A DNA stretch of 39,113 bases from NCBI GenBank assembly GCA_014377495.1, contig JACMPN010000577.1:1-39113 (forward strand), given 5' to 3'. The position numbers were made by a program, and so were the translations under genes. Source of the DNA: Candidatus Sericytochromatia bacterium (GTDB taxonomy: Bacteria; Cyanobacteriota; Sericytochromatia; JACMPN01). Numbering within the stretch: position 1 is the stretch's first letter; each line of letters opens with the position of its first letter. A model generated the notes under the pieces. It was given only the letters and a program-made list of their open reading frames with translations. It ran no database searches and had not been told where the DNA came from. Positions 25,619-31,640 of the stretch are shown here, piece after piece.

Positions 25619-27319
25619 TCAGCCGGCAACCGCGCTCAGGGACGCCCAGGTGTCGGTATCGCACAGGGCGGCGAGGATATCCGGGCGTTCGGCCAGGGCT
25701 GCGAGCAAAGGCGTGTGCAGCAGGCTATGGTCCAACTTGCGGGCCGTGTCGAGCTGCAAGGTGCGATCCACCGGTTCGCCCGTGACCAGACTGCGGTAGA
25801 CCGTCTGCCGGTCCCAGAGACAGGCCAGCCAGGCTACCACCCCCCAGGTGAAGGCAACCCCGTGACTGCCCAGGCCGAGTTTGCGAAAAAGCACCGTGCG
25901 CAGGTACCGGGTAGCCAGTTCATCGTCGCGCCGGTCATGGCATGGGACCGTGGCACTGAGGTGCCAGGCATCCGCCTGCCAGCCGTTCAACGGTCGGCGC
26001 GCCGCCTCGTCCCAGACCGACCCGTCACAGATCAGCCCCATCAGCGCCTCCGCCTGAATCGGAGTGGCAGGGCGATCGGTTGAAGCGCCGGCGCTGAGGA
26101 TGTCCCGCCAGGTGGCGGTCGGGAAGGTGCCCGATTCACGACACTGGTCGAGCAGGGCCGTCAGGCCGTTGCCGATGGTGCGCACGCGGTGCGGCAAATC
26201 ACCCACACCGCGATCCGCCAATCGGTCCAACAGCCATGTTTCCAGAATCTGATAGGTCGGCCAGGGGACCGTCGGTCCGTCGGGCCACAGCGGGATGGCG
26301 GACGGGATGACCGTCAGGCGGTGACGGATGGGCTGCAGGCGCCCCTGGAGCGCCTCCATTTGGGCCTGCAGCGGGGCACCGACGTTGTCACCCACCGTCA
26401 GACACAGGAACGACGCCGTGACGGCGATCGAGTCCGGGGTGACGATGAACTGATAGGGGAAGATCTGGCAGGTGTGGATGGGTTGCCAGCCCATCGTGGC
26501 ATGGACGGCACAGCCGTTGCCGGAGTGGGCCAGGCAATCACCGTCCGCATTGTTCCGCAGTTGCTGGTCCCCCGTCGGTTGGCCGCTGGGATCGGGCCTG
26601 ACCGGTTCGAACCCCGGCCCGGTGACGCCGATGCCGGACCAGTCGACCCGGGATAAGGCGCTCGCCGTGTTGCCGTCGACCTGGATGCTCCAGGTGCCCA
26701 TCCGGCAGCAGTCACCCCGGTTCTGACAGGTGAAACGGGACTCCGGCAGGCTCCGCAAAGGCAACTGGTCGACGGCATGGTGCCGGTGGTAGGCGGCGGC
26801 AAGGCCCGTCAGCGGCCAGACGGGATGCTCGAAATGGTTGCCCCAATGGGCCAGTTCGGCCAGACACAGGGCCATCAAGTGCGCCGGAGCGGGAAGTCCC
26901 CCGTCTGCGGGCGGAAGCCCGGCGGATTGCTGCTGGTGCACAGGCAAGACGCAGCACCCCAGGATCAGCTGCTCCGGACTCACCCGCCAGGCCGCCTGCA
27001 GGGTCTCGCCGGTATCGGCCGTGACGGTGGCCGCGACGCTGTATCCGTCGGTATCCGCCGACCAGTGATCGATCTGTTTCAGGGTGAAGTGTGTTGCGTG
27101 CGGCATGCCGTCCATCGTCGTCAGCAGGGACTCCCAGGCCTGCACGTATGCCGTGGCGGACAGTCGCTGCTTTTCCCAGACGTGACTGCCTACCAGCAAC
27201 AGGGCTTCCGGGGCATACAGGGCGTAATGCCCGACCGGGTCGCAGGGTGGCGTGCTGGTCGTCAGGAAGCGGGTGAGGATGGCGGTTAGCCAGGTGGGTG
27301 CGTGTGACATACCGGGCAT
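25619..27319 (-). CDS. FliB/YkgJ-type cysteine-cluster protein with N- and C-terminal extensions (566 aa)
   Basis: FTCQNRGDCCRMGTW, then DGDCLAHSGNGCAVHATMGWQPIHTCQIFPYQF. This resembles the C..CC / C.(F/L)...C.I(Y/H)......C..FP pattern of the YkgJ/flagellin-lysine-methylase family. ATG 27319 lies 4 nt after the upstream stop. Confidence 0.7.
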   Translation of the reverse strand: MPGMSHAPTWLTAILTRFLTTSTPPCDPVGHYALYAPEALLLVGSHVWEKQRLSATAYVQAWESLLTTMDGMPHATHFTLKQIDHWSADTDGYSVAATVTADTGETLQAAWRVSPEQLILGCCVLPVHQQQSAGLPPADGGLPAPAHLMALCLAELAHWGNHFEHPVWPLTGLAAAYHRHHAVDQLPLRSLPESRFTCQNRGDCCRMGTWSIQVDGNTASALSRVDWSGIGVTGPGFEPVRPDPSGQPTGDQQLRNNADGDCLAHSGNGCAVHATMGWQPIHTCQIFPYQFIVTPDSIAVTASFLCLTVGDNVGAPLQAQMEALQGRLQPIRHRLTVIPSAIPLWPDGPTVPWPTYQILETWLLDRLADRGVGDLPHRVRTIGNGLTALLDQCRESGTFPTATWRDILSAGASTDRPATPIQAEALMGLICDGSVWDEAARRPLNGWQADAWHLSATVPCHDRRDDELATRYLRTVLFRKLGLGSHGVAFTWGVVAWLACLWDRQTVYRSLVTGEPVDRTLQLDTARKLDHSLLHTPLLAALAERPDILAALCDTDTWASLSAVAG

Positions 27320-27323
27320 CTTG

Positions 27324-28691
27324 TCAGGTGTCGAAGAAGGCCGCCAGGCTTTCGTCGATGGCTCGCACGTCGCTCTGCAGCTCATGCAATTGGGCGACGA
27401 CGGGCGCCGTGTCACAGGCTTTGCCGACCTCCCGCAAGCCACCCATGGTCACCGCCGCATGGACGTCGGCCAAGCCCCCCATCAGGACGAACAACTGGGA
27501 AGCCAGCCGCTCGCCGGTCAGGACGGCCTCCTCATGCCGCTGCCGGCTCTTGGCGTTGCCCTGCAGCGCCAACTGGTAGTTGGCCACGGTGACCGGATCA
27601 GTGGTGCGGGCGACCAGCCGGTCCAGCCGGCGGCCTTCCTCGGCGAGTTGGCCCGGCGTGTGGGCGGCCAGATACTGCTCCAGCTGCCGCCCCCGCCGGA
27701 CGAGCGAGACGATGCCGGCGGCGACGGCGCTGACCTGGGTATCGATGGACTGCCACAGGTACTGGCTGATCTCGTCGGAGGTGCCGATGGCCTGATGGAT
27801 ACCGGACACCGCCTGCAGGGTCTTTTGGACGACCACTTGCAAACCCGACCCGGTGGTTTCTGCCAGGCACTGGCGCAAGTCGGCCTGCAGCGCCGCCGGG
27901 ATCGGGTTGGTCAGGGTGGCGATCGTTGCCGGGGCAATCTCCAGGCGGCCCAGGCCGAACAGGTGGCGGATCCCGTTCCACAACGGATCCGTCCGGTCCG
28001 GTGTCCGGGTCACTTCGGCACCCCAGCTGGCCAGGCGGGCCTCCGCCTGGTCGAGCCTGCCGGGCGGTGCCGAAACCTGTGTATGCAGCACGCCGCCGGC
28101 CTGCAGGCGGAGTTTGGGGATCGGCAGTCCCGTGGCTTTGGCCAGCCAGCCGACGAGGCGCGTGCGGCGGGCGCCTTCGGGCAGCCGGATCCGCCAGTTG
28201 ACCGTGACCGGGTTCTCCGGGGGCGGGGTATGGGCACAGTGCGGGCAAAACGGCAGGATGGCGTCGTCCGGGGCCCCGCACTGGCGACAGCGCGGTCCGT
28301 CTGTTTGCGCAGACGGTGACAGGGTATGGCCGTGCATGACCAGGGGGGGCGCGGCGATCGTGGCCGGCAGGCTGGATGCCCGGCAAAGGCTGACGATGAC
28401 GATCTGCTCGGATGATCCGGGATAGGGCATCACGGCCGTGCGTTCCTGGTGCAATGGTTGGGTCGGGTCGCCCGGCCTGACCCCAAGGCCGGCTTCACGC
28501 AGGGCTTCCACGATGAGTTGGCCGGCGGGATGGTCCTGGCCGGTCAGGTAGAGGTCGTCGCCCGTGTCCAGAAAAGGTTGCAGGTGCGCGCTCTGCAGAT
28601 TGGGAAAGACGCCCTGCAGCGCCGCCACGAAATGCCGCTCTTCGTCGGGAGGTGGCACGGTGATGGCAAGGCAGAAGGCATGGGCCGACAT
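27324..28691 (-). CDS. Hypothetical protein with a central zinc ribbon (CRQC...CPHC) and a long C-terminal helical region
   Basis: 455 aa with coherent composition. Four-Cys ribbon PRCRQCGAPDDAILPFCPHCAH. It is followed by a segment resembling the L7/L12-CTD pattern (RLVGWLAKATGLPIPKLRLQAGGVLHTQVS...AEARLASWGAEV). No SD at ATG 28691. Confidence 0.65.
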   Translation of the reverse strand: MSAHAFCLAITVPPPDEERHFVAALQGVFPNLQSAHLQPFLDTGDDLYLTGQDHPAGQLIVEALREAGLGVRPGDPTQPLHQERTAVMPYPGSSEQIVIVSLCRASSLPATIAAPPLVMHGHTLSPSAQTDGPRCRQCGAPDDAILPFCPHCAHTPPPENPVTVNWRIRLPEGARRTRLVGWLAKATGLPIPKLRLQAGGVLHTQVSAPPGRLDQAEARLASWGAEVTRTPDRTDPLWNGIRHLFGLGRLEIAPATIATLTNPIPAALQADLRQCLAETTGSGLQVVVQKTLQAVSGIHQAIGTSDEISQYLWQSIDTQVSAVAAGIVSLVRRGRQLEQYLAAHTPGQLAEEGRRLDRLVARTTDPVTVANYQLALQGNAKSRQRHEEAVLTGERLASQLFVLMGGLADVHAAVTMGGLREVGKACDTAPVVAQLHELQSDVRAIDESLAAFFDT

Positions 28692-29065
28692 GTGGGTGCC
28701 TGGAGTTTACCACCAGGACCCGGCTGGCCGTAACGGTTCCCGGCGCAGACGATTGGTCATTTTCATCGACAACGATCGGATTCTTCGGCGCAACGGTCAT
28801 CATGGCCCTTCCGGCATGACGGTGACGGCTTGGCATCCAGGGGCTGAGCGGTGTTGCCCTGTCCCATGCGCCGGGTCGTCACGGGGAATCGCGACATGAA
28901 AAATGTCTACCGGCGGCGATCCGTGATCTGAGTCACAACCTGCTGGCACTTTGCGGTGCTTAATAATTCTTCATGAAGTAACCCATGTGTTACTCGCTGC
29001 TTCAGTCCTTCAGGTGGGCGGAAGCGACGGGTAGACTACCCGGGCTCAATGACTGGAGGCGCATC

Positions 29066-29935
29066 ATGCGAGCTGCGAAAACCCTGTTGCTCATCGGTAC
29101 GTTGCTGGTTGCCGGCTGCACGCAGCCGACGGTACCCACGTCATCCGACAACTCAGGCATCGTGTCGGGCACCATGGTGATTCCAGGCGGCACCGACCCG
29201 TCCATGGCCGTGGCGCCGACGTCCCTGTGGCAGCTGGCCCAGGGCATCGTCGTCGGGTCGCCGGCATGGGCGCCTTCCCGCTTCGATGAGACGACCCTGG
29301 CCACATTCAACGCCACCATCGATGGCCGGCCCGTCCGGACCTCCTGGGACCGGATCGAGACGACCACTGCCGGCGACACCCGGGCACAGTTCACGTTGAC
29401 GGGCATCCAGGGGGACTGCGACAACGCCGAACTGATCTTCAGCAGCCCGAGCAACGCCATCAGGCTCGGCACGTACATCGACCGCATCCAGGATGAGTTG
29501 CGGACACCGTTCGATGCCACGACCAAGTTCAACCTCAAGCACGAGATCAACGCCCGGACGACCTCCGCCCTCCTGGTGGCCCGGTCGATGGCGGAGCACG
29601 GCGGTCGGGCCTTGAGCGCCTATAACGAGGCCGAGTTCCAGGCCGTGGTGAACAGCCAACGGACCCGTGAGGTCGAAGCCAGCCTGATATCGGCATTTGC
29701 GGCCCAAATCAACCGGGGCCACGACGTCTTCCGGCAGGCCCTGGTGGCCAGGATCACCGCAGACGTCGCGACGGCACTGCGGGCACAGGGACTCGACGGC
29801 GTGTTCGGCAGCAACCTGACGACCGGGATCACCTCCGGCCTTGGTCTGATGAGCAACTCGACTTCTGGCGGTTCATCGACCGGGACGAGCACCGCCACCA
29901 GTACCACCGTGACGACGTCCACGACGCGCCGCTGA
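29066..29935 (+). CDS. Hypothetical lipoprotein with a Ser/Thr-rich C-terminal tail
   Basis: GGAGG lies 7 nt before ATG 29066. Lipobox LLVAGC. C-terminus SGGSSTGTSTATSTTVTTSTTRR. Confidence 0.7.
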   Translation: MRAAKTLLLIGTLLVAGCTQPTVPTSSDNSGIVSGTMVIPGGTDPSMAVAPTSLWQLAQGIVVGSPAWAPSRFDETTLATFNATIDGRPVRTSWDRIETTTAGDTRAQFTLTGIQGDCDNAELIFSSPSNAIRLGTYIDRIQDELRTPFDATTKFNLKHEINARTTSALLVARSMAEHGGRALSAYNEAEFQAVVNSQRTREVEASLISAFAAQINRGHDVFRQALVARITADVATALRAQGLDGVFGSNLTTGITSGLGLMSNSTSGGSSTGTSTATSTTVTTSTTRR

Positions 29936-30079: not shown

Positions 30080-31318
30080 CTACCGGTAGGCCGTCACGGC
30101 CCGGACCTGACGCTGGGCGCTGGCCTGGGTCTCCATGTAGAGCGGCCGCAACTGGTAGTTGGCCGCATTGCTGGCCTGACTCTGGCTCGATGTGACGATG
30201 AGCAGGGACTGGGCCGACACGAGGGAGCCGCGTTGGTGGGTCGAGCCCTGGATGTTGACGACGTCGCCCGCCTGGATCTCCGAAAAATAACCGGTGGCGC
30301 TGTCCTGTTTCTTCCGGGTATAGACCTTGGTGTCCGGGGTGACAATGACCATGATCTTGCGTTTGCTGATCGGGTCGACGACATACATCTCGCCTTTGAC
30401 GTGGTCCACGGACTCGACGCTGGCCAGACTGACGTTGATCCGCTTCGGCGCCGGCTGGGCTGACGGCGGCGCCACCGCCAGGGTCTGTCCCGTGCGGAGC
30501 AGCAGGTAGCCTGCGGCCAGGCTGAGCAGGGCGCCCACTTCATAGAGCGTCCGGTGGAACCAGCCGTTGGCCAGGCCAAGGTCGTTCACCCAGGCCAAAA
30601 CCATGATCATGCTGAGCAGCATCAGGCTGTTCGTCACCAGGCGGCGGGTCTTGTTACGGATCGTCTGTTTGTAAGCTCTGACGAAGTAGGCGATGGCGAT
30701 GATGCCGTAGGCGATCGTCAGGCCGAGGCGGACCGAGTCGAACAGTTGATACCAGGCGTTGGCTTTTTCCTGTTTGATCGCCACCCAGGTCGGCGTCTGC
30801 GTCGGCATAGCCAGGGTCCAGCCCCGCAGGATGGTCAGCATCGTGGCTGCGTCTTTCCAGTAAAGGGGCTCGTCCGGCTGGAAGGTATGGTTGGGAAAGC
30901 CGTTGACGAGGTTCGTCTGGCCGGCCAGCAGGACGGCGTTGCGGTAGGGGTGCGCCTCGGGGACATCGGAAAAGCGGGCCTGGGCCAGATCGACACTGCT
31001 GAGGCGGGCATCGAAGCCGAACGCCCGGACGAGGTCGTTCACCGCTTGGCCCCGGCTGATCCAGGGCGTGCCGTGGGAGGGGGCGGCTGCCGCACGCTTG
31101 GCGTTGCGGGCCTGCAGGACCTTGTCGATCAGCAGGGAAAACTCCTGCTGGGAGACCAGATCGCTTTGCCGGGCCCATGCCGGGCGGGTCAGCAGCTCAG
31201 TCGCTTCGGGGACCGGTGCTGCGGAGGCCCCGCCGGGCCACGTCGTCCACAAGGCAAGGGTGGCCAGGACCGCGAGCCATAAACGCCAGGGGAAGCGTTG
31301 CGGGAGTGCGTTGGACAT
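30080..31318 (-). CDS. SLH-domain-containing membrane protein
   Basis: Signal peptide, then the SLH-like segment FSDVPEAHPYRNAVLLAGQTNLVNGFPNHTFQPDEPLYWKDAATML. Four or five TM helices and a C-terminal soluble domain. AGGAG lies 10 nt before ATG 31318. Confidence 0.75.
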   Translation of the reverse strand: MSNALPQRFPWRLWLAVLATLALWTTWPGGASAAPVPEATELLTRPAWARQSDLVSQQEFSLLIDKVLQARNAKRAAAAPSHGTPWISRGQAVNDLVRAFGFDARLSSVDLAQARFSDVPEAHPYRNAVLLAGQTNLVNGFPNHTFQPDEPLYWKDAATMLTILRGWTLAMPTQTPTWVAIKQEKANAWYQLFDSVRLGLTIAYGIIAIAYFVRAYKQTIRNKTRRLVTNSLMLLSMIMVLAWVNDLGLANGWFHRTLYEVGALLSLAAGYLLLRTGQTLAVAPPSAQPAPKRINVSLASVESVDHVKGEMYVVDPISKRKIMVIVTPDTKVYTRKKQDSATGYFSEIQAGDVVNIQGSTHQRGSLVSAQSLLIVTSSQSQASNAANYQLRPLYMETQASAQRQVRAVTAYR

Positions 31319-31640
31319 CGATCCCAACTCCTACGCTGAAACGGCTGCCGGTCGGTCAAGCGGTGCCACTGGTTGGCGGTTTGACGATAGGGGCAGGCGT
31401 TTCTCAAGACAATGTGACGGGTTTCCTCCAGGGCGGCCGTTCGGCGGGGCCGGTGCGGCAATGCGGAGTTGTGACGGTGTTAACAACCCCGGAGGAGCCC
31501 GTTATTGCTAACGTAATGCGAAACAGGCGCCTGGTATGTGACACCCGTCCATGTACCGACGTCACAGGGGCACGCGGGCTAGGTGTGGCCCGGCATGCGG
31601 GGGTCGTTAGGGGTGGCTGAAAATGCGGTTCCTGAGGCCC

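Follow-up and report, generated by a model that had tools for sequence, protein, structure and literature searches.

The stretch of DNA analyzed here (the window) is a complete contig of 39,113 bp, C363, from the 5.3-Mb, 686-contig metagenome-assembled genome of a Candidatus Sericytochromatia bacterium. Two neighboring genes within it encode P0001, a protein with a cysteine cluster, and P0002, a helical protein with a zinc ribbon. Profile comparisons place P0001 in an undescribed branch of the FliB/YkgJ/DpdM (PF03692) superfamily. What is new here is a defined branch of this superfamily, which is fused to an NTF2-like domain, lacks the second cysteine (Cys2) of the cluster motif, and has expanded in one lineage. 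The pairing of P0002 with P0001 is lineage-specific local synteny, not a general two-component system. Taken as a whole, the locus is best explained, we think rather probably, by a branch of NTF2-fused, FliB-like N-methyltransferases, one member of which is paired with P0002 in a single lineage. The two genes are:

25619..27319, minus strand: P0001, an NTF2-like plus FliB/PF03692-superfamily Cys-cluster protein, 566 amino acids from the ATG at 27319 (open reading frame, translation, 14 close homologues, AlphaFold2 (AF2) model, hhalign).

27324..28691, minus strand: P0002, a lineage-restricted protein of 455 amino acids with an α/β domain, a Cys4 ribbon, a second α/β domain and a long helical bundle (open reading frame, homologues, AF2 model).

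The superfamily assignment of P0001 comes from comparisons between profiles. A word-indexed search of 5.8 billion proteins found just 14 relatives. The profile made from these 14 (A1) was then searched exhaustively against 1.84 billion representative proteins, yielding 1841 proteins at E ≤ 1e-3 and 763 at E ≤ 1e-10. Matches of 520-550 amino acids align from position 1 of the profile, and those of 360-450 amino acids begin at about profile position 175. All ten of the short matches that were tested pass the PF03692 gathering cut-off of 23 bits (26-40 bits); the same ten score 36-78 bits on NF038110, the FliB model of NCBIfam, which is under its equivalog cut-off of 85 bits. When the P0001 family was aligned with 20 FliB-like proteins by hhalign, the probability was 100% (E 1.3e-39), and the alignment spans P0001 residues 186-544 and the entire FliB-like template. 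In addition, NF038110 directly matches 3 of the 14 family members, with a best E of 1.2e-4, and its sole matches in the whole genome are weak ones to four P0001 paralogues (E 0.02-0.16) at model positions 67-123. Together, the PF03692 proteins retrieved by A1, the hhalign result and the weak NF038110 matches indicate that P0001 is a genuine, if divergent, member of the FliB/YkgJ superfamily.

The AF2 model of P0001 is confident (predicted local distance difference test (pLDDT) score of 87; predicted template modeling (pTM) score of 0.86), and the protein is divided as follows:

26945..27307, minus strand: NTF2/SnoaL/ketosteroid-isomerase-like N-terminal domain, about residues 5-125 (Foldseek, AF2).

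26375..26764, minus strand: Cys-cluster domain, about residues 186-315, with C198-x5-C204-C205, R201, C262, C270, H273, C284 and C306 (invariant columns, alignment).

25622..26374, minus strand: C-terminal helical domain common to FliB-like proteins (hhalign, alignment, AF2 helices with pLDDT >90).

A preliminary description of this locus, made from the letters of the DNA, had noted an extra N-terminal region in P0001. This region is real, and it has an NTF2-like fold that the description had missed. Residues 9-124 are modeled, with pLDDT mostly 75-97, in the order H-H-E-E-H-E-E-E-E, giving the cone-shaped α+β arrangement of helices on a curved sheet that marks this fold. A Foldseek comparison of the N-terminus with the PDB returns ketosteroid isomerase (KSI), SgcJ, SnoaL and NTF2 folds (E 2e-3 to 1e-1, probability 0.9-1.0) over about 125 alignment columns at a target TM of 0.41-0.62, and the top 50 matches are all NTF2/KSI/SnoaL-type or designed curved-sheet proteins. 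The corresponding signal in sequence profiles is weak: a profile search of the PDB gives a steroid delta-isomerase at E 1.4, TIGR02246 (SgcJ/EcaC) matches 1 of the 14 family members (4.5e-4), and a Pfam scan of P0001 finds no NTF2-like family. Thus P0001 shares the fold of residues ~5-125 with the NTF2-like superfamily (ketosteroid isomerase, SnoaL, SgcJ/EcaC); unlike in that superfamily, the fold here is an N-terminal module of a predicted metalloprotein.

The long helical C-terminal region that was also described earlier is seen as helices in the AF2 model and aligns with the FliB-type body. It includes the motif L-T-R-Y-L-R-x-V-L-F-R-K (residues 468-480), which the alignment shows to be common to FliB-like proteins. 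The cysteine motifs quoted in the preliminary description are likewise present in the translation. Seven cysteines (C198, C204, C205, C262, C270, C284 and C306), together with H273, are unchanged in the 14 family members, and these same seven, out of the eight of the superfamily, are kept without exception in fused and canonical forms alike. Arg201 stands where the CxxCxxCC motif has its second cysteine (C198-QN-R201-GD-C204-C205), a replacement that is invariant in the 14 close homologues and was overlooked in the preliminary description. P0001 therefore lacks PF03692's own C-x2-C-x2-C-C motif and retains the four distal cysteines. Outside the close family, the Cys2 position is occupied by S, T, D and other residues. 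In a motif census of 170 proteins, C-x5-CC, without Cys2, is present in 91 of the 92 homologues that are extended at the N-terminus by 120 amino acids or more; the short forms are mostly CxxCxxCC (43 versus 17).

To our knowledge, FliB and DpdM are the only characterized members of this very large superfamily, and we know of no settled mechanism for either, beyond an iron-sulfur (Fe-S) cluster that takes part, in some way, in the methylation of a primary amine. P0001 resembles FliB in having a Cys-cluster domain followed by a helical domain (the P0001 body is ~380 amino acids, and the FliB model has 373 positions), and FliB-like proteins are colinear with P0001 over residues 186-544. It differs from FliB in its additional NTF2-like domain of 125 amino acids and linker, in the absence of a neighboring flagellin gene, and in scoring far under the 85-bit equivalog cut-off. 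FliB of Salmonella enterica is an S-adenosylmethionine (SAM)-dependent flagellin lysine N-methyltransferase, a membrane-associated oligomer with eight conserved cysteines, whose activity requires an oxygen-sensitive [4Fe-4S] cluster held by CX4CX3CC (C17, C22, C26 and C27) [Wang et al. 2021, PMC8598068]. Since the motif of P0001 is C-x5-CC, one FliB cluster cysteine has no counterpart there. DpdM, a phage YkgJ homologue, methylates the aminomethyl group of dPreQ1 and has been modeled with two metal sites around a tunnel, {C1, C2, C3, C8} and {C4, C5, C6, C7}; that is, one pocket is made up of motif cysteines 1-3 plus a distal cysteine, and the other of motif cysteine 4 plus three others [Hutinet et al. 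2023, PMC10516641]. DpdM and P0001 have the same set of eight cysteines, except that P0001 lacks one of the first pocket. Unlike P0001, DpdM is small, has a CxxxCxxCC motif, acts on DNA and lies in a deazaguanine gene cluster; family scans of the window revealed no deazaguanine-type context around P0001. The YkgJ/YcgN-type PF03692 proteins share a homologous Cys-cluster domain with P0001. There are ~10 canonical PF03692 members in the same genome, and, unlike P0001, these have open frames of ~230-380 amino acids, contain the complete motif and score above the Pfam cut-off.

Because both characterized relatives N-methylate a primary amine (the Lys ε-NH2 of flagellin and the preQ1 aminomethyl group), P0001 is, by analogy, most likely a cytoplasmic, Fe-S- and SAM-dependent N-methyltransferase. 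If the DpdM assignment is mapped onto P0001 by alignment, C205, C262, C270 and C284 would form an intact four-cysteine site, and a second site would have three cysteines only (C198, C204 and C306). A cluster held by three cysteines could leave one iron with an open position for a ligand, for example SAM. The NTF2-like domain, in turn, may serve in the recognition or binding of substrate, or in oligomerization.

A metal-binding protein need not be a transferase, and P0001 might instead be a redox or sensing protein, with the lost cysteine and the NTF2 fold pointing to work as a regulator or chaperone. The annotation of PF03692 goes no further than putative zinc/iron-chelating, and most of its members are uncharacterized. 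In addition, different members of the branch have different residues in place of Cys2 (S, R, T, D and others), and NTF2-like folds often bind small ligands. However, both characterized members of the superfamily are methyltransferases, and P0001 conserves the whole FliB-type body, down to the helical domain with its LTRYLRxVLFRK motif. We therefore regard a redox or sensing role as very unlikely and retain the N-methyltransferase as the preferred reading.

P0002, the product of the upstream gene, is built quite differently. Its AF2 model (pLDDT 71) consists of an α/β domain, a poorly modeled Cys4 ribbon, a second α/β domain and a confident long helical bundle. The protein has no useful match in Pfam or NCBIfam and none in PADLOC, and a Foldseek search with the model returns only generic helical bundles or designed proteins. 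The second α/β domain was previously taken for a segment like the C-terminal domain of L7/L12; this likeness is not borne out, since the segment is a β-α-β type α/β domain in a medium-confidence model and has no fold match. The parts of P0002 that matter here are:

28230..28298, minus strand: Cys4 zinc ribbon, C135-x2-C138 and C149-x2-C152 (conserved cysteines).

27330..27932, minus strand: C-terminal helical bundle, about residues 254-454, the best conserved part (AF2, invariant columns).

27972..27983, minus strand: about residues 238/239, the site of a missing hairpin (alignment gap).

The four-cysteine ribbon was correctly recognized in the preliminary description. C135, C138, C149 and C152 are unchanged in four full-length close homologues and form the two conserved CxxC knuckles expected of a zinc ribbon; a match to the zinc ribbon DUF7577 reaches 19.3 bits, under the 28-bit cut-off. 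In a seven-row alignment only C149 and C152 occur in every row, two distant rows beginning inside the ribbon. Within the bundle, H344, E352, T363, Y372, K381, E394, S398 and Q399 are invariant in all seven P0002 homologues, including the distant ones, and residues 320-410 have a pLDDT of ~90.

P0002 is present as a single copy in the genome, and its close relatives are very few: P0170 (56-61% identity), two homologues from Joint Genome Institute (JGI) contigs (~40%) and one fragment. The close homologues encoded on related contigs L018, L019 and L055 are 40-61% identical, and a profile search for further family members added one fragment only. P0002 lacks a two-helix hydrophobic hairpin of ~47 residues that is present in its three closest homologues. 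Among public runs, window sequence occurs only in DNA runs from the glacier metagenome that is its source; a Logan contig assembled independently from the source run covers positions 26481-28342 without a gap, confirming the hairpin-less form of P0002. Since the distant homologues of P0002 lack the hairpin as well, it is a variable feature. These distant, colinear homologues were found by profile search in two genomes (G029 and G030) of family f6, and no f6 genome carries the enzyme family. Thus P0002 has its own function.

Some observations on these distant relatives may be added. Genomes of the G029/G030 type are low in GC and belong to a family of the class that lacks flagellin. The sole complete context of a distant P0002 homologue is in G030, on contig C273 (L061, 3-2910), where the gene is preceded by one whose C-terminus resembles a secretin by eye and by a gene for a polytopic membrane protein of 181 amino acids. 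A second distant copy (L062, 5946-7524) is convergent with a lipoprotein gene whose product resembles SnoaL/NTF2 by eye.

P0001 and P0002 lie on the minus strand in the same direction, with P0002 upstream. The coupled reading frames are present just as the preliminary description gave them: the TGA of P0002 occupies 27326-27324, and an ATG for P0001 follows 4 nucleotides (nt) on, at 27319. An alternative start at ATG 27310 (MSHAPTWL) gives a protein of 563 amino acids and a gap of 13 nt; it fits the N-termini of the homologues better and is the start in the public gene call. Depending on the start codon, then, the spacing is 4-13 nt. At third codon positions, GC (GC3) is 0.84 for the P0002 frame and 0.81 for that of P0001, and values >0.8 are typical of genes in this genome, whose overall GC is 65%. 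The two genes are probably co-transcribed, the spacing being the one observation that points to this.

The preliminary description had presented the pair as an undescribed system, a reading for which the evidence gives little support. The adjacency itself extends across the close lineage. On five of five contigs (the window, L018, L019, L055/L056 and the contig of P0008), one, two or three P0001 homologues lie downstream of a P0002 homologue, and 1-50 nt separate P0002 from the enzyme gene. An SLH-domain membrane protein gene usually comes before the P0002 homologue. L018 (L018:10001-14700) and the P0008 contig have three P0001 homologues in tandem, and the window has a single copy, indicating that copy number at the P0002 locus varies between close relatives. 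Beyond the close lineage the pairing is not seen: a P0002-like neighbor is present beside none of the seven other paralogues and at none of 25 loci from more distant family members, and clustering of all the open reading frames from 31-32 loci gave no cluster that accompanies the enzyme family beyond close synteny. A general two-gene system is further contradicted by the distant P0002 homologues in enzyme-less genomes.

These findings also bear on a narrower proposal, in which the two proteins make up a self-contained, obligate system, P0002 being the specific substrate or the activating subunit of the window paralogue. The constant adjacency with short gaps in the close lineage would fit such a system. 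So would a maximum-likelihood tree, which places the window copy with those L018 and L019 copies that lie immediately downstream of a P0002 homologue, and the invariance of K381 in the seven P0002 homologues. However, K381 is also kept in the distant homologues of enzyme-less genomes, where different genes adjoin P0002; one, two or three tandem paralogues follow P0002, according to the genome; the seven paralogues and all the distant family members examined lack a P0002-like partner; and the adjacency could simply be the inherited synteny of one narrow lineage. An obligate two-protein system is thus decidedly unlikely. Under the preferred reading, that of local synteny around an NTF2-fused FliB-like enzyme, P0002 would have existed earlier, in association with genes of the envelope or membrane, and in one lineage would have gained a FliB-like gene, or several in tandem, downstream. 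P0002 may dock the P0001-type enzyme or may be among its targets.

Several points weigh against the preferred reading or parts of it. P0001 itself gives no PF03692 match in Pfam, even at E ≤ 1, and no NF038110 match in NCBIfam. The earlier assignment of P0001 to the YkgJ/FliB family therefore stands at the level of the superfamily, through profiles, and fails in direct searches of P0001 with the hidden Markov models (HMMs). A profile search of the PDB and Foldseek searches of the PDB and BFVD found no solved relative of the Cys-cluster body and helical domain; a PDB sequence search with the family profile gave two marginal matches only. The two-site assignment derives from a predicted DpdM model plus sequence alignment, and the published FliB work mutated all four motif cysteines together rather than Cys2 alone [PMC8598068]. 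The absence of the hydrophobic hairpin weakens a membrane-docking role for P0002 in this genome. Finally, a scan for promoters and terminators gave no signal above the shuffled expectation.

The P0001 family is rich in paralogues. The genome encodes eight of them, 29-38% identical, on C363, C401 (two, the second running onto C24), C464, C497, C493 (two) and C557. When contig ends were compared, only C401 and C24 could be joined, making one paralogue complete; no join was obtained for C497 and C540. Six of the eight paralogues were placed in the tree, where they and the copies from related JGI contigs make up one clade (99/99 support), which argues for a lineage-specific expansion. Across the class, the enzyme family is found in 19 of 47 Sericytochromatia genomes, spread over five of seven families, and the fused branch was found in none of ~200 other Cyanobacteriota genomes. 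Beside the paralogue on C464, a convergent gene that ends 32 nt from it (C464:3899-5875, minus strand) encodes a 658-amino-acid coiled-coil protein with several CxxC zinc-ribbon motifs, which has no sequence similarity to P0002.

The homology of P0001 to FliB raises the question of a flagellar link. The preliminary description had stated that P0001 lacks a flagellar context. Within the window this is so: Pfam scans of the open reading frames, a search with Flagellin_N and an HMM built for FlgE-like proteins detected no flagellar gene. It does not hold for the genome, which has nine Flagellin_N matches and 26 matches to the FlgE/F/G D1 domain (PF22692), and in which one paralogue sits with a FlgE-like gene in what looks like an operon. 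The number of D1 matches is 3-13 in 46 relatives of the class. About 16 of the 26 are paralogues of ~300 amino acids with near-identical termini and variable middles. Examples of FlgE/F/G-like genes in this genome, all matched by PF22692, are:

C307:14043-15002, FlgE/F/G-like.

C164:2407-4314, FlgE/F/G-like.

C215:11860-12813, FlgE/F/G-like.

C206:1135-2388, FlgE/F/G-like.

The apparent operon with the FlgE-like gene, on C497 (3397-7955, minus strand), is the only flagellar-type context found for the enzyme family. In it, a FlgE-like gene with a lectin/GH16-like insert, a gene for a glycosyltransferase with GT2 and tetratricopeptide repeat (TPR) domains, and a P0001 paralogue are separated by gaps of 55 and 2 nt. 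On C284 (11872-14439, minus strand), two tandem PF03692 genes (244 and 262 amino acids, CxxxCxxCC-type) lie directly upstream of a FlgG/FlgE-like gene of 266 amino acids. In L019 there is a gene fragment of 71 amino acids matching Flagellin_C (1806-2021), among small open reading frames in a degraded-looking region ~8 kb upstream of the pair.

The NTF2-FliB-like paralogues might, then, be dedicated to modifying the axial proteins of the flagellum, both flagellins and the enlarged FlgE-like set, as FliB modifies Salmonella flagellin, with the window copy a dispersed member. Besides the homology to FliB, this idea draws on the presence of flagellin in all 19 genomes that carry the enzyme family, on the nine Flagellin_N matches here, and on the coincidence of the large FlgE/F/G set with the largest count of enzyme paralogues in the class. 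The paralogue that follows the FlgE-like and GT2-TPR genes on the same strand of C497, and the small PF03692 genes 5' of the FlgG-like gene on C284, point in the same direction. However, flagellin is present in 41 of the 47 class genomes, 22 of which are flagellated and lack the enzyme family, and neither the 19 carriers nor the paralogue contigs have a flagellin gene close to any member of the family. None of 25 related loci has a FlgE-like neighbor, and a FlgE-like gene is found on just two of the seven paralogue contigs, where ~0.45 would be expected by chance according to our estimate (22 genes in 5.3 Mb, 108 kb of contigs). Moreover, scores are far under the FliB equivalog cut-off, and the window copy has no FlgE-like context. 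On this evidence, a general role in modifying flagellar proteins is unlikely. The contexts on C497 and C284 keep a flagellar protein in consideration as a substrate for some paralogues, and not for the window copy.

A more elaborate version would link all eight paralogues functionally to the FlgE/F/G expansion: each would mark some of the variable hook- or filament-type proteins by means of the three-cysteine Fe-S site, and P0002 would be an envelope docking factor. We give this version very little credence. If it were true, N-methyl or other marks would provide a diversifiable flagellar surface in a glacier-dwelling, non-photosynthetic relative of cyanobacteria.

Upstream of the pair, the neighboring features are:

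30080..31327, minus strand: SLH-domain polytopic membrane protein (SLH match; syntenic upstream neighbor of the pair in related contigs).

28985..29935, plus strand: gene for a 316-amino-acid protein, between the SLH gene and P0002 and on the opposite strand (open reading frame).

In L018 and L019, the gene immediately before the P0002 homologue encodes a protein with 65% identity to the SLH protein, and the P0008 contig has an SLH gene in the same order relative to the pair. The 316-amino-acid gene product has no match in family scans, and the gene is missing at the corresponding position in the related contigs (L018, L019 and the gene order of the P0008 contig). A paralogue of this gene, 44% identical, is carried on C452. 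A search with the PADLOC defense models gave no match at E ≤ 0.1 for P0001, P0002 or their neighbors.

The observation of the sequence made in the preliminary description is confirmed. The finding reveals no new kind of system, the two-gene pairing being local synteny. What it offers is a naturally occurring and conserved branch, numbering at least 90 sequence clusters, from which one ligand of the metal cluster is systematically absent and to which a fold of the ligand-binding NTF2 type is fused. The NTF2-fused branch is a ready comparison for asking which cysteines hold which metal center and what determines the choice of substrate. The biology of the Sericytochromatia is poorly known, and the finding supplies it with an enzyme family that is restricted to one lineage and rich in paralogues.

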